From: Candidatus Saccharimonadota bacterium
GTDB lineage: Bacteria; Patescibacteriota; Patescibacteriia; 2-12-FULL-60-25
Length of the DNA stretch: 32,000 nt
Direction of reading: 5' to 3'
Assembly: GCA_023898425.1 (NCBI GenBank)
Contig: CP060222.1
Location: 210,001-242,000, forward strand
The notes beneath the pieces were generated by a model. That model was not told where the DNA came from. It worked only from the letters and a program-made list of their open reading frames with translations, and did not search any database. The translations under genes were made by a program, and so were the position numbers. Positions 1,415-24,651 of the stretch are shown piece after piece (position 1 is the stretch's first letter; every line of letters starts with the position of its first letter).

Positions 1415-1681
1415 GATTTCTCCGCCAAACAGGGCCACGCTGCAATCGCAGGGTAGCCCTGACGAGCGGGGGAATCTATCGCTCCGATGAGTTTACTCAT
1501 CCCAGCAAGTACCTTGTGCTTCCGCTCGCGCTCGATTCCGCCAAGGCCCAGATTATAAACGTCGAGCATTCGCCTTCGAATGCATCAGGGCACTTCATTC
1601 AAAACCTTCCTAAGCCCTGCCTCTATGATTCAATTAAGGATCTATTGGCGGACGCAATTGGCCATAAGGCCCAAATACTAC

Positions 1682-3862
1682 ATGTTTAAGAAGATTTTCT
1701 CCGGTATTGTATCTGCGACGACCATTGCATGGTCCGTTGGTGCTGGTGCTCTTGCACTTCCATCAATTGCTTCAGCTGCAACTGCTGGTGACCTCATCAA
1801 GGCTTCCGGTCCTGCTGTGTACTATTACCACACAGACGGTAAGCGCTATGTTTTCCCTAACGAGAAGACATATTTTTCCTGGTTCAAAGACTTCTCATCC
1901 GTTAAGACCATTTCGGATTCAGAACTCGCATCCATCTTTGTTGGTGGCAACGTAACTCTTCGCCCTGGTACTTACCTCGCAAAGGTAACGACAGATCCTA
2001 AAGTATACGCTGTATCACACGATGGTACTTTCCACTGGATTGAGTCCGAAGCTATCGCTAAGGCTCTCTACGGTGACAATTGGGCACAGCGCGTCATTGA
2101 CGTACCTGATGCTTTCTTCATCAACTACACTGTCGGCACATCCGTTTCAACGGCTGTTCACCCTGACGGTACAGTTGTTTCCAAAGACGGTTCAAAATGG
2201 GTTATCGACGCTGGTAAAGCTCGCATGATCTCTGATGACTCCGTATTTGCTTCAAACGGCTACAACGCTGCTTTCACAATCCCTACGACCATCGCTTACG
2301 CGGCTGGTTCAAACGTAACGGCTCGTGAAGGTCGTCTTGCTGACGTTATCTACGGTGCAGGTACGCCTGTATCCGGCAGCATCACTGTAGCTCTTGCTTC
2401 AGACACACCTGCTGGTATGGTCGTTCCTATGAACGCATCATCTGTAATGCTTGCTAAATACAACTTCACTGCAGGTTCAGAAGCTGCGACCATCAGTGGT
2501 CTCCGTCTTCGCCGCGTTGGTGTTGGTGCAACATCAGATCTTGCAAACGTTTACCTCTATGACGCGAACGGCGCACGTCTTACGACGGGTCGCACGATCA
2601 ACTCACAGACAAACGAAGTTGAATTTAACAACTTGAACATCTCCCTCGCTGCTGGTCAGACAAAATCACTTGTTGTAACAGGTGACTTCTCTGCTCCTGT
2701 ACAGGTTGGTGGTCAGCACTCATTCCAAATCATTGACGCTTCTGCTGTCATGACTGGTGGTGTTGTATCCGGCTCCTTCCCAGTTGCTGGTAACGTGTTC
2801 ACGGTTGGTACAATCTCAGCTGGTGTTCTTAATGTAACGAAGGGCACAACGCCTTCGAACCCAAACACGGGCACGACTCAAGCTGAAATCTCCAACTTCA
2901 AGCTCGAAGCTAATACAAACGACATCGAAGTCCGCCGTATTACGCTTCTCCAAGCTGGTTCAATCTCAAACTCAGATCTTAAGAACTTGAATCTTTACCA
3001 AGGTGCAACTTTGGTAGCTTCAGCTTCATCCCTCATGGGTGATAAGATTGTGTTGAACTTCAACCCAGCAGTTGTTATCCCTAACGGCACCACACGTACG
3101 TTCACCCTCAAGGCGGACATCTCTGGTCGCTCGGATCGTGATATCAAGACCTTTATCGAATACACAACTGACGTTTATGCTGTAGACAAGCTCTACAACT
3201 CCGGCGCTTCTGTTGATATTTCTGGTTTTGATGGTACGGCTTCTAACTTTATCTCTGTTGACGTTGAAGGTGGCGCTCTTACGATCGCTGCTAACGGCCC
3301 AGCTACTGGTAACGTTGCTAAAGGCACGCAAAACGTACCATTCTTCAAATTCTCCATCACCTCTTCAGAGAGCGATGTTGAAATCCGTAACCTCGACTTC
3401 GTAGTTGAAGGTCTCTCTGGTGCTCTTCTTAAAGGTACGTCTGGTACAGACTACTTCCGCAATCTTCGCGTGAAGAATCTTGACACAAACGCTACTTTGA
3501 TGGGTCCAACGACTCCTTCGGTTTACACGAACGCTGATTCGAAGACTGCAATTAATCTCAATGAATCATTCTACATCCCAGCAGGGAAAACGATGAATCT
3601 TGCTATTACAGCTGACCTTGCTAATAACGAGGACGGTGCTGCAGAATTCTTTGGTAATCAATACCGTGTAACGCTTGGTAACGGTGCTCTCTTCGGTGCA
3701 AATGATGTTCGCATCACTGCAACGGGTGAATACCTTGATGTAGCAAAAATTATCCCTAATAGTGATATTGCGGGTAACCCAATGACGGTTAAGACTTCAA
3801 GTCTTGACGTTACTCTCGCTGCTAACCCAGCTTCATCCATTGCCGTTAAAAGCAACAGATGA
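1682..3862 (+). CDS. large secreted repeat-built surface (S-layer-like) protein, N-terminal portion, ending at a frame break
   Basis: ATG 1682 gives MFKKIFSGIVSATTIAWSVGAGALALPSIASA/ATAG, a classic Sec signal peptide. Next come three ~55-aa modules of the GDLIKASGPAVYYYHTDGKRYVFPN type. These are followed by tandem ~110-130-aa beta-rich modules (..KYNFTAGSEAATISGLRLRRVG.., ..ISNFKLEANTNDIEVRRITLLQAG.., ..FFKFSITSSESDVEIRNLDFVVEG..). The gene shows a marked GCT/GGT/ACT/GTT codon preference, as seen in abundant proteins. Confidence 0.85.
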   Translation: MFKKIFSGIVSATTIAWSVGAGALALPSIASAATAGDLIKASGPAVYYYHTDGKRYVFPNEKTYFSWFKDFSSVKTISDSELASIFVGGNVTLRPGTYLAKVTTDPKVYAVSHDGTFHWIESEAIAKALYGDNWAQRVIDVPDAFFINYTVGTSVSTAVHPDGTVVSKDGSKWVIDAGKARMISDDSVFASNGYNAAFTIPTTIAYAAGSNVTAREGRLADVIYGAGTPVSGSITVALASDTPAGMVVPMNASSVMLAKYNFTAGSEAATISGLRLRRVGVGATSDLANVYLYDANGARLTTGRTINSQTNEVEFNNLNISLAAGQTKSLVVTGDFSAPVQVGGQHSFQIIDASAVMTGGVVSGSFPVAGNVFTVGTISAGVLNVTKGTTPSNPNTGTTQAEISNFKLEANTNDIEVRRITLLQAGSISNSDLKNLNLYQGATLVASASSLMGDKIVLNFNPAVVIPNGTTRTFTLKADISGRSDRDIKTFIEYTTDVYAVDKLYNSGASVDISGFDGTASNFISVDVEGGALTIAANGPATGNVAKGTQNVPFFKFSITSSESDVEIRNLDFVVEGLSGALLKGTSGTDYFRNLRVKNLDTNATLMGPTTPSVYTNADSKTAINLNESFYIPAGKTMNLAITADLANNEDGAAEFFGNQYRVTLGNGALFGANDVRITATGEYLDVAKIIPNSDIAGNPMTVKTSSLDVTLAANPASSIAVKSNR

Positions 3863-5415
3863 TTCCTGCAACAGGCATCACGCTCACTTCTGGTGCGCAA
3901 TCTGATGTTACTGTTCGCTCGATCAAACTTACCGGTGAAGGTAAGGTTGGCGCTGGTCCTGTCGGCGTTGCTAACTTCAAAGACGTTGTAACGGCTTGTA
4001 GCCTTTATGACGGTGAGACAGTGCTTGGTACAACACAAAGCCTTGATTCAACCAATGGTACAATCCAGATCACAAATATGAACCTGGTAGTTGCTGCTGG
4101 TTCATCAAAGACCCTTGTTGTTAAGTGTACTGCTGACTCAACGGTAACTGCCGGTACGGGTGACTTCTTCCGTGTTGGTATTGCAAGCAATGTAACGGAT
4201 ATCGTTGCAGAAGATGCAGACAACAACACTTTGACGCTCACCGGTACAAACGCAGCTCCAGCTAACGCTTCAGCTCAAAACGTTAAGACCGGTGGTGACG
4301 TAACTGTTACTGCTAACAGTCTTCGTCAATCAACGATTCTCGTTGCTGACGGCTCAACTTGGCAAAACATCTCTTCTTACAAAGCAACCGCATTGTACGA
4401 AGAAGTTGCTATTGACCGTGTTGCTGTAACACTTCCTAACACCATCGAATCAGCATCTATTGCTTCGATTGCTATCGCTCAAGGCGGTGCTGTAAAGGGT
4501 GAAACGACTCTTCCTGCAGGTAACACAGGTGTCGATAAGGATATTATCCTCACAACTCCTATCATGGTACCTAAGGATGGTAATACAACCTTCGAAATCT
4601 GGGTTAAACTTAAACCAGTCGTAGGTGTTATTGCCAACCCAGGTGCAGGTATCGCTCGTTCTGGTAACCTTGTCCAAGCTGGTATCCAATACAACCTCCA
4701 AGCAGGTGAATGGGATGCTGCATACGCAGGTAACCTTAACGTTCGCTTGATCGGTCAAGCTTCTGGTGACCGTTTGTATGCACCAGCAGGTGCAGCAATC
4801 GTTGGTAATCAGTTTGTTGTTCGCAAGACCAAACCAACTATTACTCGCCAAGCTCTTGCTTCAAGCACATTGACAAATGGTACAGACAAGGACTTACACA
4901 AGTTCCAGGTCTCTGCTGATGCTAATGGTGCTGTTGCATTGAAAGAAATGACCTTCGATGTAAACTTTAGTGGTGCTACCGCTCTTTCAAACTTCCGTTT
5001 GAAGAAAGGTGCTACACTTATGAACACATCGGATGTTTCTATTCAAGACGAAAATGGTGTTGACCTTAATGCTCCGGCTGCTTTCGCTGGTAACCAAGTA
5101 ATCGTAACCTTCACAAATGAAGAGAACATTAGTGGTTCCGGCGTTGTCTACACACTTGTAGCTTCAGTCGCTGGTTCAGTTTCTGGTGATCAGGTTAGTG
5201 TTGACTTCGCTCGTGATACCGTAAACGGTACTCTCACTGGCGTAATCACAGCTCCTGGTACAGTTGGCGCACAAATCGGAGCAGACGATGTCTTCTTCGC
5301 ATGGTCCGACAACTCAGAAATTCCTCACTCAGATGTATTTGCTGGTCCTTCGTCACAAGACTGGATCAACGATGTTTATCTCGAGGACCTCGCAGGCACA
5401 AGCCTTTCACGCTAA
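3859..5415 (+). CDS. C-terminal portion of the same surface protein (separate ORF in the -1 frame, no signal peptide)
   Basis: The ATG overlaps the upstream TGA (ATGA). The sequence continues the same repeat architecture (..ITLTSGAQSDVTVRSIKLTGEG.., ..LHKFQVSADANGAVALKEMTFDVNF..). It has the same codon bias and ends at TAA 5413-5415, just before a strong terminator. Confidence 0.8.
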   Translation: MIPATGITLTSGAQSDVTVRSIKLTGEGKVGAGPVGVANFKDVVTACSLYDGETVLGTTQSLDSTNGTIQITNMNLVVAAGSSKTLVVKCTADSTVTAGTGDFFRVGIASNVTDIVAEDADNNTLTLTGTNAAPANASAQNVKTGGDVTVTANSLRQSTILVADGSTWQNISSYKATALYEEVAIDRVAVTLPNTIESASIASIAIAQGGAVKGETTLPAGNTGVDKDIILTTPIMVPKDGNTTFEIWVKLKPVVGVIANPGAGIARSGNLVQAGIQYNLQAGEWDAAYAGNLNVRLIGQASGDRLYAPAGAAIVGNQFVVRKTKPTITRQALASSTLTNGTDKDLHKFQVSADANGAVALKEMTFDVNFSGATALSNFRLKKGATLMNTSDVSIQDENGVDLNAPAAFAGNQVIVTFTNEENISGSGVVYTLVASVAGSVSGDQVSVDFARDTVNGTLTGVITAPGTVGAQIGADDVFFAWSDNSEIPHSDVFAGPSSQDWINDVYLEDLAGTSLSR

Positions 5416-5440
5416 TAGCGTTTAAGACTCTGTCTCACAA

Positions 5441-5465
5441 AACCCGCCTCACGGCGGGGTTTTTA
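5441..5465 (+). terminator. rho-independent terminator of the surface-protein gene
   Basis: aaCCCGCC-tcac-GGCGGGgTTTTT lies 26 nt after the stop codon. It is a GC-rich stem followed by a T5 run. Confidence 0.85.
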
Positions 5466-5477
5466 ATAACTCACCCG

Positions 5478-5500
5478 GATTTTCATCAAAGATGAAAATC
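5478..5500. repeat. perfect 10-bp stem hairpin (GATTTTCATC aaa GATGAAAATC)
   Basis: The reverse complement of 5478-5487 equals 5491-5500, with a 3-nt loop. Confidence 0.8.
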
Positions 5501-5502
5501 GT

Positions 5503-5526
5503 CCCTCTCTATGGAGAGAGGTTTTT
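5503..5526 (+). terminator. second terminator-like hairpin; copy 1 of the CCCTCTCT..AGAGAGG hairpin family
   Basis: CCCTCTCT-atgg-AGAGAGG followed by TTTTT (5522-5526). Confidence 0.6.
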
Positions 5527-5546
5527 CAGAATTCTGATGTAGCCTC

Positions 5547-5580
5547 AGAAGATCCCCCTCCTTTTGGAGGGGGATCTTCT
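5547..5580. repeat. perfect 15-bp stem hairpin (AGAAGATCCCCCTCC tttt GGAGGGGGATCTTCT)
   Basis: The reverse complement of 5547-5561 equals 5566-5580, with a 4-nt loop. Confidence 0.85.
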
Positions 5581-5582
5581 GT

Positions 5583-5645
5583 CTCCGAACACCCTCTCTC
5601 ACAGAGAGGGACATTTATGCCGAAGGTATAAATTGGGTGAGTAGC
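5583..5645 (+). repeat. 63-bp direct repeat, copy A (contains CCCTCTCT hairpin copy 2 at 5592-5610)
   Basis: ctccgaacaCCCTCTCTcacAGAGAGGGacatttat..aattgggtgagtagc. It aligns without gaps to 6170-6232 at a constant offset of 587 bp, with about 54/63 identities by manual count. The first 29 nt are identical. Confidence 0.85.
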
Positions 5646-5689
5646 GCGAAGGCTTGACGATGCCCCCATTCATATGGAACGGGGTAGAT

Positions 5690-6111
5690 ATGATCATCGC
5701 TAACTATAACCGCGCTTTAAAAGCGCGCTCACAAGAACTAAGAAAAACCAAACTCAGGCAGAAAAGATCTTTTGGTACGAGGTTCTCAAAAACCACCATT
5801 TCATATGTTTACCTGGCGTAGACAAAAACCTCTTGGTAACATTTTATTGTTGATTTTTATTGCACAGAATTAAGGCTTGTTGTTGATAGATGGATGGCAA
5901 GATCCATGAATCACAGGTTGAAAGAGATGAAGAAAGAACGCTCGTCTTACAAGAAGAATATGGTTTGCGGGTGATTCGCTTTACGAATGATGAGGTTTTA
6001 TATGAGAGAGGGAGGTTGTGGCGCGGCTTCGCGCAACTCACCCTGGCTTTTGCTAAAGCAAAGAGCCGGTCCCTCTCTGTGGAGAGAGGGTGTTCGGAAG
6101 GCTGCGACTGA
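5690..6111 (+). pseudogene. DUF559 (Vsr-like endonuclease domain) pseudogene with multiple frame breaks
   Basis: The recognisable DUF559 consensus is spread over at least five reading-frame segments. These are ALKARSQELRK (from ATG 5690), NQTQAEKIFWYEVLKNHHF, FTWRRQKPLGN, DFYCTELRLVVD and DGKIHESQVERDEERTLVLQEEYGLRVIRFTNDEVL (ORF 5890-6111). Stops interrupt at 5818-5820 and about 5869-5871. The last ORF runs on into the palindromic repeat. Confidence 0.75.
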
Positions 6112-6197
6112 TCTGGAGCGTACGTTATTTTTTATAAAAAATAACGTACGCTCTGCCATCAGTCGCGGCCTCCGAACACCCTCTCTCACAGAGAGGG
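6071..6197. repeat. 127-bp imperfect palindrome with a 38-bp perfect core (6116-6153); its ends are CCCTCTCT hairpin copies 3 and 4
   Basis: The core GAGCGTACGTTATTTTTTATAAAAAATAACGTACGCTC is its own reverse complement. The flanks also pair: GCGACTGAT/ATCAGTCGC, TGTTCGGA/TCCGAACA, and CCCTCTCTgtggAGAGAGGG (6071-6090) against CCCTCTCTcacAGAGAGGG (6179-6197). There are a few bulges and mismatches. Confidence 0.9.
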
Positions 6198-6232
6198 ATA
6201 TTTATCGCAACGCGATGAATTGGGTGAGTGGC
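6170..6232 (+). repeat. 63-bp direct repeat, copy C (partner of 5583-5645)
   Basis: ctccgaacaCCCTCTCTcacAGAGAGGGatatttat..aattgggtgagtggc. It ends 50 nt upstream of ATG 6283. Copy A ends 44 nt upstream of ATG 5690. Confidence 0.85.
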
Positions 6233-6282
6233 ACCCCGTACGTTGTGCTCATGTGGCCTCACGGTGTATCCTATACATCATT

Positions 6283-8625
6283 ATGAATCGTTCTTCTGCT
6301 ATCAAGTTCTTTAAAGCTATTACGCTTCTCGGTGTTTATGGGGGTTTACTTGTGCCTCCGATGTTTATCCCGGTTGTTATCTTTCCGTTTGTCTTTTCTA
6401 AACTCATTTTCTTACAGGTACTTATCGGTATTACGTTTCCTGCGTATATCGCCTTGGCATGGATGGAGCCTGCATATCGTCCTAAGAAGCATTTACTTAC
6501 GGGTGCATTACTTTGGTATTTTGCCGCGGTAGCGCTTTCGGTATTATTTGCTGTTGATCCAATGCGTGCTTGGTGGGGTAATCAAGAGCGTATGAATGGG
6601 TTATTTACCCTCCTTCATTTCTTGGCGTGGTTCTTGATGATTACGGGCGTTATTCGTACTTGGGATGAATGGAAAAAGCTTTTGCGTTTTGAGGTATGTA
6701 TTGGTGGTTTTATGGCGATAATCGCGATGTTGCAAAAGCTTAATCCAAATTTATTGATGTTTCCTGCTGGTCCTCGTGTGGGTGGATTATTGGATAATCC
6801 AATTTACATGGCAGCGTATCAGATTTTTAACCTGTTCTTCTTGGGTCTGCTTTGGTGGAAAGAAAAATCCAAAGGCTGGAAGTGGGGCTATGGATTTATC
6901 GCTCTTTTGGCCATTATCGCGTTTTTCTTGGCACAATCTCGTGGTGCTCTTGTAGGGTTGGCAGTTGGGTTATTGGCCTTTGCTTTTTATATCGGGGTTT
7001 TCTCAAAGAGCAAAAAACATAAGCTTGCGGTTTTTGGTGGCTTGGCAGCACTCGCTATTGGATACGGAGGGCTCTATGTAGCTCGCGATGTACCATTTAT
7101 CAAAGCTTCACCGCTTTATCGTCTTGTGGATTTTCAAGCGACGATTACCACGCGTCTTATTGCATGGGATATTGCTTGGAAGGGTTTTAAAGAGCGTCCT
7201 TTGACGGGTTGGGGTTTTGATAATTTCCACATCATCTTTAACCAGCACTATAACCCACAATCATTACGCTTTGGTCAGTACGAAACGTGGTTTGATCGTG
7301 CGCATAATACGGTATTAGATGTGATGTCGATGACTGGGCTCTTTGGTCTTATTGGCTTCATTGCTATTTATATTACGATTTTCTACTCCTCCTGGAGAGC
7401 CTATAAAAAAGGCTGGATCGATTTACCTATTGCGGCAATGTTGTTTTCTTTACCGATAGCGTATTTTGTACAAAATCTTTTTGTCTTTGACCACCCAGCT
7501 GGATTTACCATGAGCTATTTGCTCTTTGCTCTCGTTGTAGGTGCAACACAAAAAGACTTTGTTGGTGAAAAATCCAAAGAAGAAGTAAAAGAAGAGGCCG
7601 AAGGTCGTCACGAAGCTCCTTGGATTGCGTATGGCGCGATTTCGCTCGCTGCGCTCTTTATTGTGTGGGCATATTCAATCACACCATTCAATATTTCGCG
7701 TATCGCTTTACGTTCCAATGGTCTTATTAGCTCAAACCCACAAATGGGTATCGACCTTGCAAAACAAGCGAGAGACTACGGTTGGACACCGTATGTTGAT
7801 GAGCAATCATTCTTGCTATCCAGAAATCTCATTTCAATTGCGGGCGCACAGCCTTCGGCGGTACAATCACCGATTTGGAAGGACGGGTATCAGTTAGCAA
7901 AAGAGCTTAGCCTCGAAGAAATCTCTCGTCATCCAAAAAATACGCATCCACGCTTTATTTTGGCACGTTTAGCACAAGAAGCTTTTGTTGGTGATGCTCC
8001 AGAAGGCCAAGTATCATTAGACCAATACAAAGAGGCGATAAAATTGAGTCCACAACGTCAGCAATTGCACTTTAGTCTTGCGCGTCTCTATCTTATGGCT
8101 GGTCGTGTAGATGATGCGCTCGCGATTCTAAAAGACGTCACAACTTTTGATCCAGATGCGGGTGAACCATTCTGGAATTACGGCCTCTCACTCTTATTTG
8201 ATAAAAAAGATGTAGACGGTGGTGTCGCTGCGATTATGCAGTCTCAAACAGCGGCTTACCCATATCGCTTTACAAATGCACGTGAACTTACCGTTTTGAC
8301 GGACGCGCTCATTGTCTCAAATGATCAAGCGGTATTTGATCGCTTTATAAGAGAGCTTGCAAATACGGATTACTTTCCGCGTTTAACGGCAACAGAATAC
8401 GGTCAAATCGCTGTTCGCTTGCATCAAGCAAATAAGATTGAGTGGAGAGACGCCTTCTTACAAGCTGCAAGTGAAATCGATCAAAACACTATGGCAGAAT
8501 ATACAACGATTCTTACGACGCCGGCAGCTACGACCACAACCGAGGCTGCGGCAACGCCAGCAAATACGAGTGTTACCTCGACGAGTCAGGTGGCTACAGG
8601 TACCTATAAAGGCCCGCGAAATTAA
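6283..8625 (+). CDS. Wzy_C (O-antigen ligase / PglL-like) polytopic membrane protein with C-terminal TPR domain
   Basis: I prefer ATG 6283, because the TTG 6220 extension lies in repeat DNA. About 10-12 hydrophobic helices are visible. ..FFLAQSRGALVGLAVGLLAF.. and ..RPLTGWGFDNFHIIF.. are the hallmark Wzy_C loop motifs. The C-terminal ~300 aa are soluble with TPR-like repeats (YKEAIKLSPQRQQLHFSLARLYLMAGRVDDALAILKDVTTFDPD) and end in a Thr/Ala/Pro-rich tail. Confidence 0.8.
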   Translation: MNRSSAIKFFKAITLLGVYGGLLVPPMFIPVVIFPFVFSKLIFLQVLIGITFPAYIALAWMEPAYRPKKHLLTGALLWYFAAVALSVLFAVDPMRAWWGNQERMNGLFTLLHFLAWFLMITGVIRTWDEWKKLLRFEVCIGGFMAIIAMLQKLNPNLLMFPAGPRVGGLLDNPIYMAAYQIFNLFFLGLLWWKEKSKGWKWGYGFIALLAIIAFFLAQSRGALVGLAVGLLAFAFYIGVFSKSKKHKLAVFGGLAALAIGYGGLYVARDVPFIKASPLYRLVDFQATITTRLIAWDIAWKGFKERPLTGWGFDNFHIIFNQHYNPQSLRFGQYETWFDRAHNTVLDVMSMTGLFGLIGFIAIYITIFYSSWRAYKKGWIDLPIAAMLFSLPIAYFVQNLFVFDHPAGFTMSYLLFALVVGATQKDFVGEKSKEEVKEEAEGRHEAPWIAYGAISLAALFIVWAYSITPFNISRIALRSNGLISSNPQMGIDLAKQARDYGWTPYVDEQSFLLSRNLISIAGAQPSAVQSPIWKDGYQLAKELSLEEISRHPKNTHPRFILARLAQEAFVGDAPEGQVSLDQYKEAIKLSPQRQQLHFSLARLYLMAGRVDDALAILKDVTTFDPDAGEPFWNYGLSLLFDKKDVDGGVAAIMQSQTAAYPYRFTNARELTVLTDALIVSNDQAVFDRFIRELANTDYFPRLTATEYGQIAVRLHQANKIEWRDAFLQAASEIDQNTMAEYTTILTTPAATTTTEAAATPANTSVTSTSQVATGTYKGPRN

Positions 8626-8633
8626 GTGGACGA

Positions 8634-8659
8634 CCCTAGTACTTAGTGCTAGGGTTTTT
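8634..8659 (+). terminator. rho-independent terminator
   Basis: CCCTAGTAC-tta-GTGCTAGGG followed by TTTTT, 9 nt after the stop codon. Confidence 0.7.
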
Positions 8660-8667
8660 CTATTATT

Positions 8668-9603: not shown

Positions 9604-9604
9604 T

Positions 9605-10735: not shown

Positions 10736-10738
10736 AAT

Positions 10739-11860: not shown

Positions 11861-12459
11861 AATTCGCTCACGAACAATTTGAACGAGAATGTATGCAAGA
11901 AATCGCAAAACGCGATCGTGTTTTGGATGTGGGTGGCGGTTCTCGTTTTCAAAAGGGGATGAAGACATACGAATCACTCTTTGCAAATACAGCGTATGAA
12001 ACCATGGATATTTCGTCTGATTATTCGCCTGATATTGTAGGGGATATTCATGCTATCCCTTTAGCGGATGCAAGCGTTGATGCGATTATTTGCCGCTCAG
12101 TGCTTGAGCATGTAAAAAATCCGAACGTCGCTATAATAGAACTCCATCGTATTCTTAAGCCCGGTGGCCTGTTGTTTTTACAGGTACCATCGACGTATCC
12201 ATACCATGCACGAAAAGGAGTAGGAGCCTATAAAGATTATTGGCGTTTTTTTGATGATACGCTTGAGCTATTTGGGGAGTCATTTACCTCATACAAAATC
12301 GTGAGACATGGCGGTTGGTTTTTGGCGATGTCATTTTTCTTTCCCGGCCAAGCGCTTATGAGAAAGTCTCTTGATTATATCGCACTATTTTTTGATAACG
12401 TTTTTGCAACACAGAAAAAGACAACAACGGCGTTTTATAGTGTATTGTTAATGAAGTAG
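11857..12459 (+). CDS. class I SAM-dependent methyltransferase
   Basis: ATGA overlap with the upstream gene. Motif I is RVLDVGGGSR. ..IICRSVLEHVKNPNVAIIELHRILKPGGLLFLQVPS.. is the Methyltransf_11-type post-I/II/III pattern. Confidence 0.8.
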   Translation: MKFAHEQFERECMQEIAKRDRVLDVGGGSRFQKGMKTYESLFANTAYETMDISSDYSPDIVGDIHAIPLADASVDAIICRSVLEHVKNPNVAIIELHRILKPGGLLFLQVPSTYPYHARKGVGAYKDYWRFFDDTLELFGESFTSYKIVRHGGWFLAMSFFFPGQALMRKSLDYIALFFDNVFATQKKTTTAFYSVLLMK

Positions 12460-12460
12460 T

Positions 12461-13546
12461 ATGAAGATACTTGCCATTGGATTAGATAGAACGCTTGCTG
12501 ACCCCGCTTCGGTGTCAGCTAAGCGACAAATCGCTTATTTTCGTGATTGGGATTGTGATATGGTTGTGTTATCGGTTGGATCGTCATCAATAAGTGAAAT
12601 TGCGCCAAATATTCGTGTCCATCTATCGGGTGGATCAAATAAGCTCATAGCGTTGATGCGTGGTTATAAGCTTGCAAAAAATTTAGCCCAACAAAAACAT
12701 GTGCAGATTGTTTCAGGACAGGACTTTTTGTGGACGGGGTTGATCGCTTGGCGCGTTGCTCGTGATGTGGGCGCAAAACTCTATGTGCAAGATCATAGCG
12801 AGTTTTTTGTATCACGTTTAAAAACCATTCAAGAACGTTTGTTTACGCCAATTGCTCGTCATATCGCAAAACGCGCTGATAAAATCAGAACAGTAAGTCA
12901 TAGGGGGGTGATGGCTACCACAAAGTTAGGCGTGCATCCAAAAAAAGTCATAGAGATCCCTATCGCGACGGATGTTTCAGCGTATGCAGCTCTTCAACCA
13001 GCGAAACAAGAGGCAAAAACCGTTTTGTGCGTAGGACGTTTAGAGTGGCAAAAAGGTATGGATACGTTGTTGATAGCTTGGCACAAGCTGATTAAAATTT
13101 TTCCAGAAGCTCGGTTGCATATTGTCGGCACAGGCAAATTGCAAGAAGCGCTTATTGCTCAGTCTCATGTTCTTGAATTAAGTGACTCGGTGGTTTTTAG
13201 GGGTGCTTTGCCTCATATCCGCGATGAGTTGGAATGGGCGTCTATAGTAGTACAACCGTCACGATTTGAAGGCTGGGGTATGGCTGTTATCGAAGCTGCG
13301 GCTGCCGCAAAACCAATTGTGATGACGAATGTTGGTTGTGCGGGAGAGGTTATTATTCATGATCATTCTGGGATAGTCATTCCTACCAATAATTCGGAGG
13401 CTCTCGCAAAGGCGATAGGTTTTCTTTTTCAGCATCCAGAAGTTGCTACACGTTTAGGTCGAGAAGCGCAAAAAAATGCTCTCGCATTACCAACACCAGA
13501 ACAAATGACTCAGTCTATCCGTGACTCTTTTGAATCAATGCTATGA
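12461..13546 (+). CDS. GT-B glycosyltransferase, family 4-like
   Basis: ..LCVGRLEWQKGMDTLL.. and ..PSRFEGWGMAVIEAAAAAKPIVMTNVGCAGEVIIHDHSGIVI... Confidence 0.85.
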   Translation: MKILAIGLDRTLADPASVSAKRQIAYFRDWDCDMVVLSVGSSSISEIAPNIRVHLSGGSNKLIALMRGYKLAKNLAQQKHVQIVSGQDFLWTGLIAWRVARDVGAKLYVQDHSEFFVSRLKTIQERLFTPIARHIAKRADKIRTVSHRGVMATTKLGVHPKKVIEIPIATDVSAYAALQPAKQEAKTVLCVGRLEWQKGMDTLLIAWHKLIKIFPEARLHIVGTGKLQEALIAQSHVLELSDSVVFRGALPHIRDELEWASIVVQPSRFEGWGMAVIEAAAAAKPIVMTNVGCAGEVIIHDHSGIVIPTNNSEALAKAIGFLFQHPEVATRLGREAQKNALALPTPEQMTQSIRDSFESML

Positions 13547-14571
13547 ATATTTTGATTACGATACAAGCCGTTGATTTAGATGATCCATTAAACGGGTTTT
13601 TTCATGAATGGTTAAAAGAAGCTTCACATCATTTTGATGCAATAACGGTACTTGCCTTGCGCGTTGGTAGACATGATCTGCCAAAAAATATAACCATTAT
13701 CCCGATGCGTAAAGCAGGCTCGAGGTCAAAGCTCGAAGCCTTTTGGACACTCGTACGTACATCATGGCAACGCAGAAAAATGTATGATGGTGTCTTTGTG
13801 CGTACGGACGCTATTTATGTTCTCTTATGTGGTTGGTTATGGAGACTTTTAGCAAAACCAGTTGTATTTTGGTATGCCCACTATAAGCCAAATAAGCTTT
13901 TGCCTTTTGCAGAACAGATAGCAACAGTCGTTGTAACATCGGTACCAGAAGCCTACCCAGGTCGAGCAATGATGGCAGAACGATTAGGTCAGGGGATCGA
14001 TGAATCTCGTTTTTTGGTGCATGAAAAAACAGAACATGCGATGCTACGATTGCTTGTCTTAGGTCGCGTTCAGAGAATTAAGGGGGTAAAAGAAATAGTG
14101 AGTGAATTTATTCGCGAAGGCGCTTATGGTGGCAAAGCGCAATTAACTATTGTAGGTCCCGCTCTAGACAGAGACTACGAAAAAGAGATCGAAGATTTAT
14201 GTGTTGGTAGAAAGGATATTCGTTGGATAAAGGGTTTGTCGTATGATGAGATTCCATCTTTGCTTGCTGAGCAAGACGTATTAGTAAATGCCTATTCTGG
14301 AAGTCTTGATAAGGTTATTGTGGAATCTATGATGATGGGGATGATTCCGGTCGTTGCAACACGTGGTCTTTGTCATACCGTGCCATTAGAGTGGCGCTGG
14401 ATGGTGGCCGAAACACCAGAAGAGCGTATTCGTGCAATACGTAAGATTCTTTCTCTTGCCTCCGAAGAACGCACTCGATACGCTAAGCGTGTACGTGAGT
14501 TGGCTATTCGTGATCATTCGATGCGAGGTCAAATTGAGCGTCTTGCAAACCTCTTTACGAGATATGAATAA
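13543..14571 (+). CDS. probable GT-B glycosyltransferase (divergent GT1/GT4-like)
   Basis: ATGA overlap with the upstream gene. It has a two-Rossmann-like layout, with ..LLVLGRVQRIKGVKEIV.. and ..SLDKVIVESMMMGMIPVVATRG... The motifs are weaker than in its neighbours. Confidence 0.55.
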   Translation: MNILITIQAVDLDDPLNGFFHEWLKEASHHFDAITVLALRVGRHDLPKNITIIPMRKAGSRSKLEAFWTLVRTSWQRRKMYDGVFVRTDAIYVLLCGWLWRLLAKPVVFWYAHYKPNKLLPFAEQIATVVVTSVPEAYPGRAMMAERLGQGIDESRFLVHEKTEHAMLRLLVLGRVQRIKGVKEIVSEFIREGAYGGKAQLTIVGPALDRDYEKEIEDLCVGRKDIRWIKGLSYDEIPSLLAEQDVLVNAYSGSLDKVIVESMMMGMIPVVATRGLCHTVPLEWRWMVAETPEERIRAIRKILSLASEERTRYAKRVRELAIRDHSMRGQIERLANLFTRYE

Positions 14572-15229
14572 TCACATTGCGGAGCTCTACCAAAAACATC
14601 ATGCAGAAAATGAGCGTTTTGGTTTTACTCTTTTTGAAAAAGAGCGTTCTGCATGGCTTTTATCTCAATTTCCAAAGAAAGAAGGTTTACGTATCCTAGA
14701 CCTAGGATGTCGAGACGCTACCTTGATGCGGCATTATGCACCTTTTGCTTCTACCCTTGTTGGGGTTGATATTGACGCATCCGCAATAGCTGAGGCGCAA
14801 AAGCGTTTACCGCAAGCTGAGTTATTTCAAATGGATTTACTTGGTGATTGGAGTGAGTTACAAGGGCATCAATTTGATATTATCGCTTGTTCTGAGGTAT
14901 TAGAACATGTTTATTATCCTCAACGTGTTGCAGAAAAGGTTTCAAGCTTATTAGCGCCAGGCGGTGTTTTTATTGGAACAATACCAAATGCGTTTTTCTT
15001 AAAGCATCGTTTGCGTTATTTATTTGCGTTACGTGAAGGTACGCCAATCTCTGATCCAACGCATATCACCCAATTCAACCTAAAAGAACTAAGACGAGTC
15101 TTATCTGTGATTTCAAACACAATAACGATTTCTGGTTATACAAGATTGCCTTTTCGTTGGCTTGCAAAAAAGATGCCCTCCGTATTTGCCTTTGATTTGT
15201 ACTTTAGCGTAAAGAAGAATCAGAATTAA
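14564..15229 (+). CDS. class I SAM-dependent methyltransferase
   Basis: ATG 14564 overlaps the upstream stop (ATGAATAA). Motif I is RILDLGCRDATL. ..DIIACSEVLEHVYYPQRVAEKVSSLLAPGGVFIGTIPN.. follows. The 14432 extension is out-of-frame upstream gene sequence. Confidence 0.8.
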   Translation: MNNHIAELYQKHHAENERFGFTLFEKERSAWLLSQFPKKEGLRILDLGCRDATLMRHYAPFASTLVGVDIDASAIAEAQKRLPQAELFQMDLLGDWSELQGHQFDIIACSEVLEHVYYPQRVAEKVSSLLAPGGVFIGTIPNAFFLKHRLRYLFALREGTPISDPTHITQFNLKELRRVLSVISNTITISGYTRLPFRWLAKKMPSVFAFDLYFSVKKNQN

Positions 15230-15878
15230 CTTCTGGTACAGCCGTGATAACAAGTGTTTCAATATATTTTTCTGTTAGACGTGAAAGTCCTCGGTACAAG
15301 ATGTTTAAAAACTTTTTCTTTAGGCTTTCTTGGTGTGAAAGCTCGAGTGAGTAAACGGTATCAAATGATGTCGTTGTCCAGCCATTTTTTCTTAGTAAGA
15401 CATTTATAGTTTTTTTATTAAAGTAACACGTGTGATCGCTATTTACTGTAGGTTCATCTTTGGTGAGTTTTTCGGCAATATTAAAGAGATTAAAGGTATT
15501 TGGTGTTGTGAGTATAAGCCGGCCATTTGGCTTGAGATGTTTTTTGCATGCATCTAAAAATAATCCAGGATTTGAAAGATGTTCTATAAGATCACCTGCA
15601 AAAATGACATCAAAGGTGACTGGGAGGGTAAAGTGTTCTGCGCTCTGTTTGAAATAGCGTCCTTCGTCTTGCGGCAGATTTGTTTCGTAAGTTTGCAGGT
15701 CTAAACCATAGGTTTCTTTTGCGATCTTTTTGATGGTTCTGTGCAACCAATGAGAGTCGGCAGGTGTTTTTCCTTGGCCTAAAAAACCAATATCAAGAAC
15801 GGTATCTGATGGAGTGATGGTTGCGGCTATCAATGCCTGCTTATTAGGATAGATCATAGTTGATGGCATTTTACCCAT
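15204..15878 (-). CDS. class I SAM-dependent methyltransferase (start uncertain)
   Basis: ..DTVLDIGFLGQGK.. (motif I) and ..DVIFAGDLIEHLSNPGLFLDACKKHLKPNGRLILTTPN... Candidate starts are ATG 15878, 15869 and 15857, or TTG 15953. The 3' end overlaps the convergent gene by 26 nt. Confidence 0.75.
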   Translation of the reverse strand: MGKMPSTMIYPNKQALIAATITPSDTVLDIGFLGQGKTPADSHWLHRTIKKIAKETYGLDLQTYETNLPQDEGRYFKQSAEHFTLPVTFDVIFAGDLIEHLSNPGLFLDACKKHLKPNGRLILTTPNTFNLFNIAEKLTKDEPTVNSDHTCYFNKKTINVLLRKNGWTTTSFDTVYSLELSHQESLKKKFLNILYRGLSRLTEKYIETLVITAVPEVNSDSSLR

Positions 15879-16558
15879 CAGATAGCATACGGTTAAACCA
15901 TATGCGCTTTGCAGAGACTGTTCAAGACCTGTTAAAAGGTTCTTCTTTAACAAGATCTGCTTTTAATCGCACATTGCCTCGAATATCGGCATTAAGTGGC
16001 CGTATACTGGATGTAGGAGGCACAAGGGTACCAATGGCGAGTTATTATCGGTATTTGGCCATCGACGATGTAAGAATGGTCGAGGTGCTAAATATCGTGG
16101 ATTCCGTAGGCGCTGATATTGTCGCCGATGCTGCCACAATCCCTTGTGAGACGGCGCGATACGATGCCGCTATCTGTTTTAATGTACTAGAACATGTCGC
16201 ACGTCCACAGCATGTCTTGTCTGAAGTTCGTCGTGTTATAAAAACAGATGGACGCTTTATCTTGATGGTGCCATTTTTGCACAGAGTACATGGTGATCCA
16301 GATGATTATTTTCGTTATACCGAATCTGGATTGCGCGTACTCTTTACTGATGCTGGGTTTTCGATTCGTTCGATTCTTGTGTTAGGCAAGGGTCCGCTCA
16401 CTGCTGCCTTGGCACAGTGGCAGACGCTTGTGCCTGGTTGGATGTCATTACCATTTTTTGCTATCTGTTATGCGCTAGATGGATGGTATATTCGTCTTCG
16501 TCCAAAGCAAGCTCAGAATTGGCCGCTTGGTTATTTGGTAGAGGCGAGAGCGATCTGA
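15863..16558 (+). CDS. class I SAM-dependent methyltransferase (start uncertain: ATG 15863 or 15902)
   Basis: ..GRILDVGGTRV.. (motif I) and ..AAICFNVLEHVARPQHVLSEVRRVIKTDGRFILMVPF... Confidence 0.75.
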   Translation: MAFYPSDSIRLNHMRFAETVQDLLKGSSLTRSAFNRTLPRISALSGRILDVGGTRVPMASYYRYLAIDDVRMVEVLNIVDSVGADIVADAATIPCETARYDAAICFNVLEHVARPQHVLSEVRRVIKTDGRFILMVPFLHRVHGDPDDYFRYTESGLRVLFTDAGFSIRSILVLGKGPLTAALAQWQTLVPGWMSLPFFAICYALDGWYIRLRPKQAQNWPLGYLVEARAI

Positions 16559-17787
16559 CGTTTGGCGGCAAACTCTAATCCGATCTGATATCCCAACATT
16601 TGGATAGCTTGAAAAAGGAGCTTACCAATAACGGCGCCGACCAATCCGCCAAGGAATAACCCAATCGCCATAATGACGCTTTGAAGTATAGATGAAGTGA
16701 CGAGGACTTTGCTTAAAGTATCGGACTCTTGTTGAGAAAAGAGGATGGTGAGCGGTATCGACCAAAGACCAAAAAGAAAGCTGATCCCGTATAGCTGTGC
16801 GAGAGGAATAATGTCTGTATAATTTGGATAGATGAGCGTAAATACCGGCGGGCAAAGCAAGACATAACCCAAGGCAGTAAAACTGAGACCAACAAAAAGC
16901 AACGCCATTTTTCTACGTAACAATGGAACAATTTCACCTAGGTTTCGATTTGCATAATCTGGTAAAACCACTGATGGGCCTATTTTTATAAAGCCCTTTA
17001 AGCGTTCTGGAATGGTTGTAATAACGGCAAAGGCCGCAAGGGATGCCGGACCAAGGATTGCGTGGATGAGAAATGTTTCTATTTGATCAACAGCAAGTCG
17101 AAGCCCCCAAAGGATAGAGATATGACGACCATAGGGGATGGTGGCTTTATCGGTTGAGGTATTTGGTTTGTAGCGATAGACGGTATAAGCGTGAAATAGC
17201 AAATTCGTTAGCAAAGTGGCGCCAATATTTGCTAGCGTAATAACGATAAGGCTTTGTGTACCAATAAGCGCAATAGCAATCGTCCCGTAGATACATAGCG
17301 CTTGAATAACATTGCTAGTAGAAAAAGCTTCGAACGCTTTTTTTCCTTGTAAGAAAGCAGTATAGGTATTAAAGGCATTCGATACCGGCATCACCAAGGC
17401 AATCGCCGCTAAACAAAAGGCGGCCGTCGTATTGCTTTGAGCGTAAAAGAAAGAGGCGGCTATAAAGCCTCCGATAGCATGTGGTATAGCCCACTTTAAT
17501 TGGTAGCGGATAGAACTCGCTAAAGCCCCTTCATGCCCTCTTGCAACCGCTTGGACAACGGCAATGTTCATTCCGGATAATGCAAAGCTATTAAAAGCAT
17601 TTAACAAACCTAAGATAAAACGGTATTCGCCAAAAACCTCTTTACTCAGGGTATTAGCAAACAAAATATTTACTCCTAAGCCAAAAATAGCAGCAATAAA
17701 AGAACCTACGACGAGCAAGCTACTATTTTTTGCATGCTCACGTACATTGATTTTAAGTCGATGCTCAAGTTGTTGAAGAATAGACAT
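16531..17787 (-). CDS. Wzx-type oligosaccharide flippase (MOP superfamily)
   Basis: 418 aa with about 12 hydrophobic helices. The N-terminus ..KNSSLLVVGSFIAAIFGLGVNILFANTLSKEVFGEYRFILGL.. is the typical Polysacc_synt/Wzx opening. It lies 3 nt downstream of the phosphoglycosyl transferase gene. Confidence 0.7.
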   Translation of the reverse strand: MSILQQLEHRLKINVREHAKNSSLLVVGSFIAAIFGLGVNILFANTLSKEVFGEYRFILGLLNAFNSFALSGMNIAVVQAVARGHEGALASSIRYQLKWAIPHAIGGFIAASFFYAQSNTTAAFCLAAIALVMPVSNAFNTYTAFLQGKKAFEAFSTSNVIQALCIYGTIAIALIGTQSLIVITLANIGATLLTNLLFHAYTVYRYKPNTSTDKATIPYGRHISILWGLRLAVDQIETFLIHAILGPASLAAFAVITTIPERLKGFIKIGPSVVLPDYANRNLGEIVPLLRRKMALLFVGLSFTALGYVLLCPPVFTLIYPNYTDIIPLAQLYGISFLFGLWSIPLTILFSQQESDTLSKVLVTSSILQSVIMAIGLFLGGLVGAVIGKLLFQAIQMLGYQIGLEFAAKRQIALASTK

Positions 17788-17790
17788 GAC

Positions 17791-19167
17791 TTAAGTGCCT
17801 TGACGACGTAAGACGACGCCAATGGTTTTTAGAAGAATAAGGGTATCCAAAAATAATGAGCGATGTTTAATATAAAAAAGATCGTATTGTAATTTACGTA
17901 AGTTGTCTTCGAGTACAGCCGTTGGTATTAAGTACGAAACTTGTGCCCAGCCGGTGAGTCCAGGGCGTGTAAGGTGACGCAACTTATAATAAGGCATCTG
18001 TTCTTCGAGTGGTGCAGTAAACTCAGGCCTTTCTGGTCGAGGGCCGATAAAGGAGAGATCACCAATAAAGACATTCCAGATCTGCGGTAATTCATCGAGA
18101 CGTAATTGGCGAAGTATGCGACCTGCTTTAAATAATCGCGGATCTGTTTTTGCATCTGAGGTAAATTGCGCACCTTCTTTTTCAGCGTCTAGATGCATGG
18201 TACGAAATTTCCAAAGGGTAAATCGTTGGCCGTTTTTGCCAACGCGTACTTGTTTATAGAGCGCAGGTCCTGGTGACGAGACTTTAATAATCCCAGCGAT
18301 CAAAGGGTAGAGTAGGATGGTGATGATGCCAAAAGGGATGGCCATCAAAACATCTGTGCCGCGCTTTACGATCTCGTACCAAGCTTTGTCCGCCTCTTTA
18401 AGATGATGAAGAAACCAAGCTTCATTGACATAACGAAGAGGAATACGACCGGTCGCTGCTTCTTCGATTTCTGCGCGGTCTAAGATAGTGATTGGATAGA
18501 ACACTGCTTGATACACGGCATTACGTAGAGACTCGTGTGTTTCTGGTGACGCCCCAAGTACAATCGTTTGAACACGATGCATGACGAGAAAATCCTCCCA
18601 TTGTTGTAGTCCTTCATAGGTTTCAAAAAAGCTATTTTTTGTTGCCATGCCTCCCGTGATAAAAGCATGTGTGAGTTTTAACCCAAGAGGGCTCTCTTCT
18701 AGTAGACGCGCTACTGGCATGGCTTCACTTGCTGGACCAATATAGACGGTGATTGCTGGGGTAGCGTTTCTTGATAAAAGATGACCAACAATGATCCGCC
18801 ACACATATCCAAAAAAGAGAAAAACAGCAAATTGTATAACGAGGATACGTCGAGGAGCAATCCCGAAAAAGGGGAGTAAATAAAAGAAGGCAAACCCAAT
18901 AAGAACATTTACAAGCATTCCTTCAAGGTACTGACGAAAAAGCTTAATCGGCTCTCTAATAAGAAGAAAACCGTATAAGCCAGAAACATAAAATACTACG
19001 ACCCAGATCAATGAGAGGAGAAAAAATGGCAATGCGTGGAGCGACCACTGTTCTTGGTGAAATGTTCCGTAACGCACAAAGAGGGTTATCACCATTGCAA
19101 ACTGAAAAAAGACCAAGTCTCCAAGGACAAATCCTAGTGTTTTGAGTCTATGTCTTCCTGTAAGCAT
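17791..19167 (-). CDS. polyprenyl-phosphate hexose-1-phosphate transferase (WbaP/Bac_transf family initiating phosphoglycosyl transferase)
   Basis: An N-terminal 4-5 TM block is followed by ..KRGTDVLMAIPFGIITILLYPLIAGIIKVSSPGPALYKQVRVGKNGQRFTLWKFRTMHLDAE..DPRLFKAGRILRQLRLDELPQIWNVFIGDLSFIGPRPERPEF..GLTGWAQV... This is the canonical sugar-transferase domain. Confidence 0.9.
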   Translation of the reverse strand: MLTGRHRLKTLGFVLGDLVFFQFAMVITLFVRYGTFHQEQWSLHALPFFLLSLIWVVVFYVSGLYGFLLIREPIKLFRQYLEGMLVNVLIGFAFFYLLPFFGIAPRRILVIQFAVFLFFGYVWRIIVGHLLSRNATPAITVYIGPASEAMPVARLLEESPLGLKLTHAFITGGMATKNSFFETYEGLQQWEDFLVMHRVQTIVLGASPETHESLRNAVYQAVFYPITILDRAEIEEAATGRIPLRYVNEAWFLHHLKEADKAWYEIVKRGTDVLMAIPFGIITILLYPLIAGIIKVSSPGPALYKQVRVGKNGQRFTLWKFRTMHLDAEKEGAQFTSDAKTDPRLFKAGRILRQLRLDELPQIWNVFIGDLSFIGPRPERPEFTAPLEEQMPYYKLRHLTRPGLTGWAQVSYLIPTAVLEDNLRKLQYDLFYIKHRSLFLDTLILLKTIGVVLRRQGT

Positions 19168-21454: not shown

Positions 21455-21459
21455 TCACT

Positions 21460-22485: not shown

Positions 22486-22496
22486 CGTTATACACA

Positions 22497-24648: not shown

Positions 24649-24651
24649 ACT

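Follow-up and report, generated by a model that had tools for sequence, protein, structure and literature searches.

A conserved gene pair for a Wzy_C-TPR membrane enzyme and a predicted surface protein in Patescibacteria: candidate components of a protein O-glycosylation system

In a 32,000-nt stretch of DNA (the window) from a bacterium that, judged by sequence, belongs to the Patescibacteria (Candidate Phyla Radiation, CPR), the gene for a Wzy_C membrane enzyme with a C-terminal tetratricopeptide repeat (TPR) domain follows the gene for a very large secreted protein. This pairing was found to be conserved in nearly all of the related genomes compared, the enzyme has the fold and the conserved catalytic residues of the ligase WaaL, and the gene for the secreted protein carries an extreme codon bias; these points, like the identities of the genes, were observed directly. 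The reading that we favour, although we would give it slightly less than an even chance, is that the enzyme is an O-oligosaccharyltransferase (O-OTase) predicted to glycosylate the neighbouring S-layer-like protein.

Coordinates are positions in the window, and genes were called from a six-frame listing of open reading frames (ORFs) combined with Pfam, NCBIfam and PDB comparisons. Exact or near-exact public matches carry the labels Candidatus Magasanikbacteria or Nomurabacteria, and those of the nearest relatives are Uhrbacteria or Patescibacteria. The literature treats the CPR as a monoderm clade (10.1101/2021.05.31.446380).

Results

A WaaL-fold enzyme with an added TPR domain

The two genes at the centre of the analysis are these:

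1682-5415, plus strand: gene for a 1,245-aa secreted surface protein, with a 1-nt frameshift (signal peptide, homologues, frameshift repair, AlphaFold2 (AF2) model of a homologue, effective number of codons (ENC))
3848-3851, plus strand: site of that frameshift, an A4 run one A short relative to the homologues (tblastn and repair by insertion)
6283-8625, plus strand: gene for a Wzy_C (WaaL-fold) ligase-like membrane protein of 780 aa (Pfam, invariant residues, AF2 model)

The product of the second gene was matched by the Wzy_C family (PF04932) with 66.2 bits, against a cut-off of 31.7, over residues 206-360, and by TPR families of Pfam in its C-terminal part; the Wzy_C match was also obtained for 20/20 homologues. 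In its architecture, 12 transmembrane (TM) helices and a Lys/Glu-rich linker are followed by a further TM helix, the 13th, by some 300 aa of TPR-like domain and by a Thr/Ser/Pro tail, which in most of the 20 aligned homologues is closed by a conserved GPR[RKN] motif. In the AF2 model of the enzyme (pLDDT 83, pTM 0.79) the membrane part matches the cryo-EM structure of Cupriavidus metallidurans WaaL (7TPG, chain 7tpg_B; TMt 0.65, probability 1.0, 450 columns), whose 12-TM fold it shares, including the large external loop that separates TM9 from TM10, and 7TPG was the best PDB match both by structure and by sequence. The C-terminal part resembled TPR superhelices in the structure comparison, that of OGT among them. 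A stand-alone TPR protein encoded beside the surface-protein gene at one distant locus (L086) was considered as a detached form of this domain and rejected, the similarity being unspecific (E=1.4).

Three residues, R220, R291 and H341, are invariant in the 20 homologues. In the alignment to 7tpg_B, R220 and H341 fall on its corresponding Arg and His motifs and R291 on its RL motif, and the spacing of the three (71/50 residues) is close to that of R215/R288/H338 in Escherichia coli WaaL (73/50) and corresponds also to that of R224/R298/H349 in Neisseria meningitidis PglL. In both of these enzymes the residues named are the ones required for ligase activity (PMC3643930).

Within the membrane part, short Lys/Arg-rich loops alternate with conserved loops. 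From the topology of WaaL, the TPR domain is predicted to face outward (extracytoplasmic) on the catalytic side; since it follows a 13th helix that comes after the Lys/Glu-rich linker, it would lie beside the catalytic loop on the outer face of the membrane.

As a rule, the sequences of Wzy polymerases diverge rapidly between serotypes. The 20 aligned homologues of the enzyme are 47-85% identical over their full length (mean column identity 60%), and the values over all 80 loci fetched are 43-82%, which argues for a conserved substrate and against a serotype-variable polymerase. A polymerase model, TIGR04370 ('oligosaccharide repeat unit polymerase'), gave a weak match (E=7e-5; 22 bits against a cut-off of 40).

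Linkage to a single secreted-protein gene

That the two genes are neighbours had been noticed in a preliminary description of this one stretch, and the neighbourhood held up across genomes. A total of 80 loci from species-representative genomes were collected with a profile of the Wzy_C-TPR family, and the proteins of the window were mapped onto them by tblastn; linkage was counted in the 62 loci with at least 4 kb of upstream sequence and the remaining neighbours in the 45 loci with full 10-kb flanks. In 61/62 loci the gene that immediately precedes the Wzy_C-TPR gene, in the same orientation, is that of the surface protein (median gap 215 nt). The sole exception, L028, is a rearranged locus that has neither the surface-protein gene nor the glycan genes. 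Downstream of the enzyme gene, the neighbours fall into a conserved and a variable set (UXS, UDP-xylose synthase; SDR, short-chain dehydrogenase/reductase; GT4, glycosyltransferase family 4):

UXS-like SDR, downstream: 37/45 loci, median identity 43%, with cross-hits to paralogues possible
GT4a orthologue, downstream: 40/45 loci, median identity 59%
GT4b orthologue, downstream: 44/45 loci, median identity 45%
GT4d, variable: 16/45 loci (tblastn)
methyltransferases, variable: 1-6/45 loci (tblastn)

The reverse comparison started from four distant homologues of the surface protein (33-46% identity). At 4/4 of these loci a sigma-factor gene, a DUF5667 gene and the surface-protein gene stand in that order, and at one of them, L084, a Wzy_C-TPR gene with 30% identity is retained two genes downstream of the surface-protein gene, behind an S8 protease gene.

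A candidate major surface protein

The stretch 1682-5415 had been described as one intact gene; it is actually two ORFs, 1682-3862 and 3859-5415, in different frames. Comparison by tblastn with the homologues P0122, P0124 and P0126 placed the switch of frame at 3850-3859. The homologues (1,243-1,293 aa) are continuous across this junction, and the addition of one A to the A4 run at 3848-3851 restored an ORF of 1,245 aa, in which the junction 'AVKKQQMIPATG' is identical to that of the homologues. The public record P0121, whose protein is the same as that of the first ORF, also has just 726 aa. The two halves have ENC values of 36.8 and 37.4, and because the same extreme bias is kept on either side, the frameshift should be either recent or a sequencing artefact; the A4/A5 difference could be a sequencing error, a population variant or a recent inactivation.

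The strong codon bias noted earlier was borne out, with an ENC of 36.2 for the whole gene against 43-57 for the other 23 genes of the window (about 50 when pooled). The gene prefers GGT (80%), GCT (65%) and AAC (73%) and is also shifted towards GAC. Bias of this kind typically marks genes with very high expression, and the gene is predicted from it to be one of these. The protein is also rich in Ser and Thr, as had been stated (together 19% of residues), and its N-terminus resembles a signal peptide.

The protein belongs to a family with more than 950 database entries, nearly all of 1,150-1,290 aa, all 'hypothetical' and none with a Pfam domain; the protein itself gave no match to Pfam or NCBIfam families, even at E<=10. 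An AF2 model of a homologue with 44% identity (P0173; pLDDT 85) begins with a signal helix and a conserved N-terminal domain of alpha/beta type and continues as a row of immunoglobulin (Ig)-like beta-sandwich domains, for which Foldseek returned generic multi-Ig matches only (alpha-2-macroglobulin, integrins and PrgB, with TM-scores below 0.2). The N-terminal domain, of about 130 aa, is the most conserved section of the protein. We considered it as a shared wall-binding module that recurs in the C-terminus of an M23-like protein (22433-23914) and rejected this, as BLASTP gave E=0.06 only. A hidden Markov model (HMM) of the domain found nothing else among the six-frame ORFs of the window.

Pfam, NCBIfam and Foldseek revealed neither a known anchoring module (SLH, CWB2) in the protein nor any resemblance to the S-layer families described. 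What it shares with S-layer proteins is that it is secreted, abundant as judged by codon bias and, on the model of its homologue, built of beta-sandwich domains. As its gene combines the codon bias with a terminator of its own (see below), it fits a major structural surface protein, and an S-layer role is plausible. It lacks an obvious low-complexity linker, which neither supports nor excludes a role as glycosylation target.

At L085 a second gene, for a protein of 1,240 aa without a Pfam family (12574-16296), lies just downstream of the surface-protein homologue with a Y1 transposase gene between the two, and may be a paralogue. Genes for S8 proteases also recur near the surface-protein gene: between it and the Wzy_C-TPR gene in L084 (11938-13896) and downstream of it in L086 (11990-14122). 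Further along, the window has a gene of this family for a protease that may process the surface protein:

19222-20421, plus strand: secreted S8 subtilase (PF00082, E=2.9e-45)

Glycan genes of the window

The inventory of glycan genes drawn up in the preliminary description was confirmed by Pfam, NCBIfam and PDB comparisons: apart from the Wzy_C-TPR enzyme there are a UDP-xylose synthase, four GT4 (GT-B) transferases, four S-adenosylmethionine (SAM) methyltransferases, a Wzx-type flippase and a polyprenyl glycosylphosphotransferase.

8668-9603, plus strand: UDP-glucuronate decarboxylase (UDP-xylose synthase; human UXS1 is the best PDB match, full length, E=1e-120, the next being 2e-47)
9605-10735, plus strand: GT4a, conserved core (Pfam)
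10739-11860, plus strand: GT4b, conserved core (Pfam)
11857-16558, mixed strands: variable part of the glycan cluster (Pfam), made up of the next six genes
11857-12459, plus strand: class-I SAM methyltransferase (Pfam)
12461-13546, plus strand: GT4 glycosyltransferase (Pfam)
13543-14571, plus strand: GT4 glycosyltransferase (Pfam)
14564-15229, plus strand: class-I SAM methyltransferase (Pfam)
15204-15953, minus strand: class-I SAM methyltransferase (Pfam)
15860-16558, plus strand: class-I SAM methyltransferase (Pfam)
16531-17787, minus strand: candidate MOP/Wzx-type flippase, Polysacc_synt (PF01943, E=1.2e-14)
17791-19167, minus strand: large polyprenyl-phosphate hexose-1-phosphate transferase, an initiating phosphoglycosyl transferase (PGT; Bac_transf PF02397, E=2.4e-57)

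To call the pathway complete, as had been done, was an overstatement, as the ugd gene is not in the window. The PGT, which had been described as WbaP-type, matched Bac_transf and passed TIGR03025 (327 bits against 295.6), but the WbaP and WcaJ models remained below their cut-offs. NCBIfam models likewise gave only generic matches below threshold for the sugar specificity of the GT4, GT2 and PGT proteins, those for GT4 being far below the cut-offs. Chain-length regulator, lipid A and lipopolysaccharide (LPS) core genes were not found among the window ORFs scanned, and there are no lpx or waa genes within the 32 kb.

The earlier statement that no Wzy polymerase is visible was unsafe, since Wzy_C proteins include polymerases and the window holds an unclassified polytopic protein in addition:

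27175-29259, minus strand: 694-aa polytopic membrane protein (CPR-only family with 196 matches, all 'hypothetical')

This protein had no Pfam or PDB match, even by profile. It has an invariant motif, GFGFDGF-LH...YYIGQY, that can be set against the catalytic-loop sequence of the Wzy_C enzyme, GWGFDNFH...FGQYETWFDRAHN, in a weak alignment (hhalign probability 11.8%), and it might be a glycan polymerase, a ligase or a GT-C-like enzyme that has gone unrecognised. Beside it, at 23971-27203, a GT2 gene (for a PpgS/AglJ-like polyprenyl-phospho-sugar synthase, below cut-off), a DUF2304 gene and two more GT4 genes make up a second sugar route; a GT2-DUF2304 pair also follows the surface-protein gene in L086. 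Two tandem, divergent UXS-like SDR genes occupy 20441-22485 (human UXS1, E=2e-61 and 3e-68), which brings the number of UDP-glucuronate-decarboxylase-like genes to three in 14 kb.

Regulatory genes upstream and the intergenic regions

Upstream of the surface-protein gene lie the end of a gene for an extracytoplasmic function (ECF)-type sigma factor, a DUF5667 gene and a structured intergenic region:

1-240, plus strand: ECF-type sigma-70 gene, of which the window includes the 3' end only (frame-1 translation, Sigma70_r4_2 E=8.5e-13)
212-1414, plus strand: DUF5667 single-pass membrane protein with a Thr/Ser-rich C-terminal tail (PF18915, 36 bits against a cut-off of 27)
1415-1681, plus strand: structured intergenic region with probable promoter boxes for the surface-protein gene (RNA fold, covariation, motif counts)

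A DUF5667 gene was found upstream of the surface-protein gene in 43/45 full-flank loci as well as in 4/4 distant loci, and a sigma70_r2/r4_2 gene precedes it in L001, L002 and L083-L086. The position and topology of the DUF5667 protein suggest an anti-sigma factor. The order sigma-DUF5667-surface protein, often with an HTH_17 gene upstream, is kept even where there is no Wzy_C gene (window 1-1414, L001, L002, L083-L086), and the DUF5667 protein may serve as anti-sigma factor in a regulon dedicated to the surface protein. Thr/Ser/Pro-rich low-complexity tails end both the DUF5667 protein (1290-1414) and the Wzy_C-TPR protein (8520-8625), and may be O-glycosylation sites or a sorting signal.

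The RNA fold of 1415-1681 has a z score of -5.0, and two hairpins are conserved across 22 loci, CAGGGCG..CGTCCTG (13 pairs with compensatory changes) and GAGCGGG..CCCGCTC. When the equivalent leader regions of L002-L081 were compared, AAGGTCGA was found in 42/57 loci at about -119 from the ATG and ATCCTCGCC at about -151, with the spacing ATCCTCGCC-N16-AAGGTCGA; both boxes lie 3' of the hairpins. The pair may form a promoter for the ECF sigma factor encoded next to it, followed by a leader of about 110 nt. A scan of the window with Rfam matched no family.

The region 5416-6282, between the surface-protein and enzyme genes, had been described as a non-coding gap. It holds a terminator-like hairpin and a frameshifted DUF559 remnant flanked by direct repeats; a second hairpin follows the enzyme gene:

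5443-5458, plus strand: terminator-like hairpin, 6 G-C pairs and a T run, 28 nt past the stop of the surface-protein gene (sequence)
5501-6232, plus strand: insertion-like unit, a DUF559 remnant in direct repeats (repeats D1/D2, DUF559 match)
8632-8656, plus strand: terminator-like hairpin, 11 pairs and a T run, after the Wzy_C-TPR gene (sequence)

The remnant is a pseudogene of the DUF559 (endonuclease-like) family at about 5654-6111 with several frameshifts, of which the fragment 5890-6111 matches DUF559 at E=2.7e-7. Its direct repeats, of 63 nt (86% identical) and 36 nt, contain CCCTCTCT..AGAGAGGG palindromes. In L001, the closest relative (84% identical), an intact DUF559 gene occupies the same intergenic spot on the opposite strand, and the unit suggests a small mobile cassette.

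Discussion

In the reading that we favour, the PGT (17791-19167) would start an oligosaccharide linked to polyprenyl phosphate, GT4 enzymes would extend it from donors that include UDP-xylose made by the UXS (8668-9603), the SAM methyltransferases would methylate it and the Wzx-type protein would flip it. The 780-aa Wzy_C enzyme would then move the glycan en bloc at the outer face of the membrane, with its Arg220/Arg291/His341 loop working as in WaaL and PglL, and its extracytoplasmic TPR domain would dock the acceptor, namely the abundant 1,245-aa protein encoded upstream and possibly the Thr/Ser-rich tails of other exported proteins. What we infer in this scheme is how the enzyme sits in the membrane, which glycan is donated, which molecule accepts it and that the protein has an S-layer role. 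The preliminary description had proposed such a transfer in stronger terms; the linkage, the WaaL fold and the R/R/H triad support a weaker form of it, while the lack of a PglL_A match and of linkage to the PGT and Wzx genes do not.

Several observations weigh against this reading. PglL_A (PF15864), the domain that separates PglL from WaaL and that the preliminary description had named as a model to search with, did not match the enzyme of the window at E<=10, nor was it among the families listed at E<=0.1 for the 20 homologues. Glycosylation of the surface protein is a prediction, and no sequon is known. The flippase gene was found within 10 kb of the Wzy_C-TPR gene in only 3/45 loci and is outside the conserved neighbourhood; the PGT gene was found in 0/45, a weak test given that in the layout of the window itself it lies at the edge of a 10-kb flank. 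Terminator-like hairpins end both the surface-protein and the enzyme genes, so that a single operon is not required, and the frameshift splits the very gene of the window that has the strongest codon bias. Three of the four distant loci (surface-protein identity 33-37%) keep the sigma factor and DUF5667 but have no Wzy_C gene within 8 kb, and because the Wzy_C gene is mostly not kept there, the deepest conserved unit is sigma factor, DUF5667 and surface protein. As judged by these loci, the enzyme and the sugar-gene core are attached to this unit throughout a large clade, not universally, and synteny within one clade may in part reflect shared descent. TPR domains, moreover, are also binders of polysaccharides. 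Finally, the step from the lack of lipid A to a protein acceptor, on which the preliminary description had relied, is invalid as it was stated, since TacL, a Wzy_C ligase of a monoderm, has a glycolipid as its acceptor (PMC5727136).

This last point leads to the rival that survives best, a TacL- or WaaL-like ligase with a non-protein acceptor, which we consider possible but on the unlikely side. The enzyme would join the glycan to a membrane glycolipid or wall component, giving a lipoglycan or secondary cell-wall polymer to which the surface protein binds by its N-terminal domain, and the two genes would be linked as those of an anchor and its anchored partner. TacL does the equivalent when it joins teichoic acid chains to a glycolipid (PMC5727136). 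The fold and the R/R/H triad suit any ligase of the WaaL superfamily, the conservation of GT4a, GT4b and UXS suggests a conserved glycan, and this reading explains the linkage about as well as an O-OTase does. S-layer anchoring modules are often N-terminal, and the N-terminal domain of about 130 aa is the section of the surface protein that is best conserved. In the Firmicutes, S-layer genes beside wall-polymer genes are a known pattern, in which SLH or CWB2 anchoring goes with wall-polymer machinery (10.1101/2025.04.02.646754), and the sugar binding of which TPR domains are capable (10.1101/2020.04.19.049825) would suit it too. It is disfavoured mainly because of the TPR domain, which is always present, highly conserved and predicted to be extracytoplasmic: TacL is a protein of 397 aa with no extra domain (PMC5727136), whereas the family described here always has the 13th TM helix and a TPR domain in which, over some 300 aa, many residues are invariant. 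Furthermore, the window has no recognised equivalogs for teichoic acid, LCP or glycolipid synthases, and the N-terminal domain has no detectable relative among its other proteins.

A general O-OTase with its main targets elsewhere (type IV pilins or Thr/Ser-rich tails), adjoining the surface-protein gene through a shared ECF-sigma envelope regulon, seems to us improbable. It would resemble PglL of Neisseria, a general O-OTase that modifies flexible low-complexity regions (PMC3643930), and would accommodate both the Thr/Ser/Pro-rich tails on the DUF5667 protein and on the enzyme itself and the fact that the most widely conserved core has the sigma factor, DUF5667 and the surface protein without the enzyme. 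Set against it are the absence of a pilin gene from the window and the linkage, which in 61 of the 62 loci concerns one gene, that of the surface protein.

The weakest contender, and a very unlikely one, is a Wzy-type polymerase of a Wzx/Wzy capsule or exopolysaccharide, with the surface protein unrelated or merely co-regulated: the PGT, GTs and Wzx are those expected of such a pathway, no other polymerase was recognised, TIGR04370 did register and the closest solved structure was named 'polymerase/ligase' by its depositors, but that match is below the cut-off, the invariant His of the AHN motif and both Arg are residues important in WaaL and conserved in PglL (PMC3643930), no Wzz/PCP chain-length regulator was found among the scanned ORFs, the family is 43-85% identical over its full length across many species, and the tight linkage to one protein gene is left without an explanation.

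If the O-OTase reading is carried further, a large clade within the CPR (Uhrbacteria/Magasanikbacteria-type) would have the 1,245-aa protein as its S-layer or envelope protein, a dedicated TPR-bearing O-OTase would add to it a conserved, xylose-containing, methylated oligosaccharide, and the ECF sigma/DUF5667 pair would set its production through the conserved promoter and structured leader, the whole forming a self-contained 'surface coat module' in bacteria of ultra-small size. We offer this fuller picture as speculation and doubt that all of its parts will hold together.

The class of mechanism, S-layer or protein O-glycosylation by a WaaL-type enzyme, is already known. A literature search returned no report from the CPR of an O-antigen-ligase-like enzyme, an O-OTase, or protein or S-layer glycosylation, and nowhere in the literature searched is such a system described for the CPR phylum, nor the family of the putative acceptor protein, the family of 13-TM+TPR enzymes or their constant association with an ECF sigma factor and DUF5667. 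The CPR/Patescibacteria make up a large share of bacterial diversity and are mostly uncultured, and hardly any of their envelope proteins has, to our knowledge, been assigned. The presence of S-layer proteins in Patescibacteria is predicted in one preprint, which gives no details (10.1101/2024.05.28.596244). The locus offers candidates for a major surface protein, for an enzyme that possibly modifies it and for a sigma/anti-sigma pair that possibly controls it. If the favoured reading is true, S-layer-type O-glycosylation extends beyond the Firmicutes, and surface antigens and handles for the capture, imaging and cultivation of CPR cells would follow; should the acceptor not be a protein, the locus would define a CPR lipoglycan or wall polymer, which would be equally new.

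Comparison with known systems

The closest parallel is with the slg clusters of Paenibacillus alvei and Geobacillus stearothermophilus (WsfB/WsaB and WsfP/WsaP), which likewise combine a Wzy_C enzyme carrying a C-terminal TPR (WsfB: PMC2943079) with an initiating polyprenyl-phosphate hexose-1-phosphate transferase, an O-methyltransferase and several GTs; their hosts are monoderms, and the clusters are situated close to the gene for a secreted surface protein that is made in abundance. A TPR motif at the C-terminus has been reported both for WsfB, an S-layer O-OTase, and for PglL (PMC2943079). With its Wzy_C and C-terminal TPR domains, and with a PGT and GTs near a surface-protein gene, the locus described here resembles the WsaB/WsfB type in architecture and cluster content. 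It differs in its CPR phylum, its four methyltransferases and its UXS, in having a Wzx-type flippase where G. stearothermophilus exports through an ABC transporter, and in a surface protein that stands outside the described S-layer families, has no SLH domain and is a putative glycoprotein and candidate lattice former.

With PglL and PilO/TfpO the enzyme shares the WaaL-superfamily fold and, as in PglL, the R/R/H triad (PMC3643930), but lacks the PglL_A motif. The genes for PglL usually adjoin those of their targets (PMC3643930); here, too, the enzyme gene adjoins one secreted-protein gene on the same strand in 61/62 genomes, a protein for which the role of acceptor is predicted. The pilin OTase TfpW is a polytopic protein with a periplasmic TPR domain and is encoded directly downstream of the gene of its pilin acceptor, pilA (10.1101/2020.04.19.049825), an arrangement that recurs here in the polytopic membrane domain, the TPR domain and the position of the gene just downstream of a putative acceptor. 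TfpW is modelled on ArnT (GT-C), unlike the present enzyme with its WaaL fold, and, in contrast to the pilin OTases, the neighbour here is a 1,245-aa multi-Ig protein and the host is expected to be without a periplasm bounded by an outer membrane.

WaaL itself (7TPG) has the same Wzy_C domain, with a conserved Arg and His in the large external loop; the enzyme of the window has about 370 residues more, which form the 13th TM helix and the TPR domain, and its host should be missing the lipid A-core acceptor, according to the literature on the CPR as monoderms without LPS. TacL of Streptococcus pneumoniae is, like it, a Wzy_C ligase of a monoderm, with a polyprenyl-PP-linked glycopolymer as its substrate (PMC5727136). 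TacL has 397 aa and no extracytoplasmic domain, whereas the present enzyme, at 780 aa, adds both a 13th TM helix and a TPR domain; TacL has not been reported to be linked to a surface-protein gene, and no teichoic-acid families occur among the ORFs of the window.

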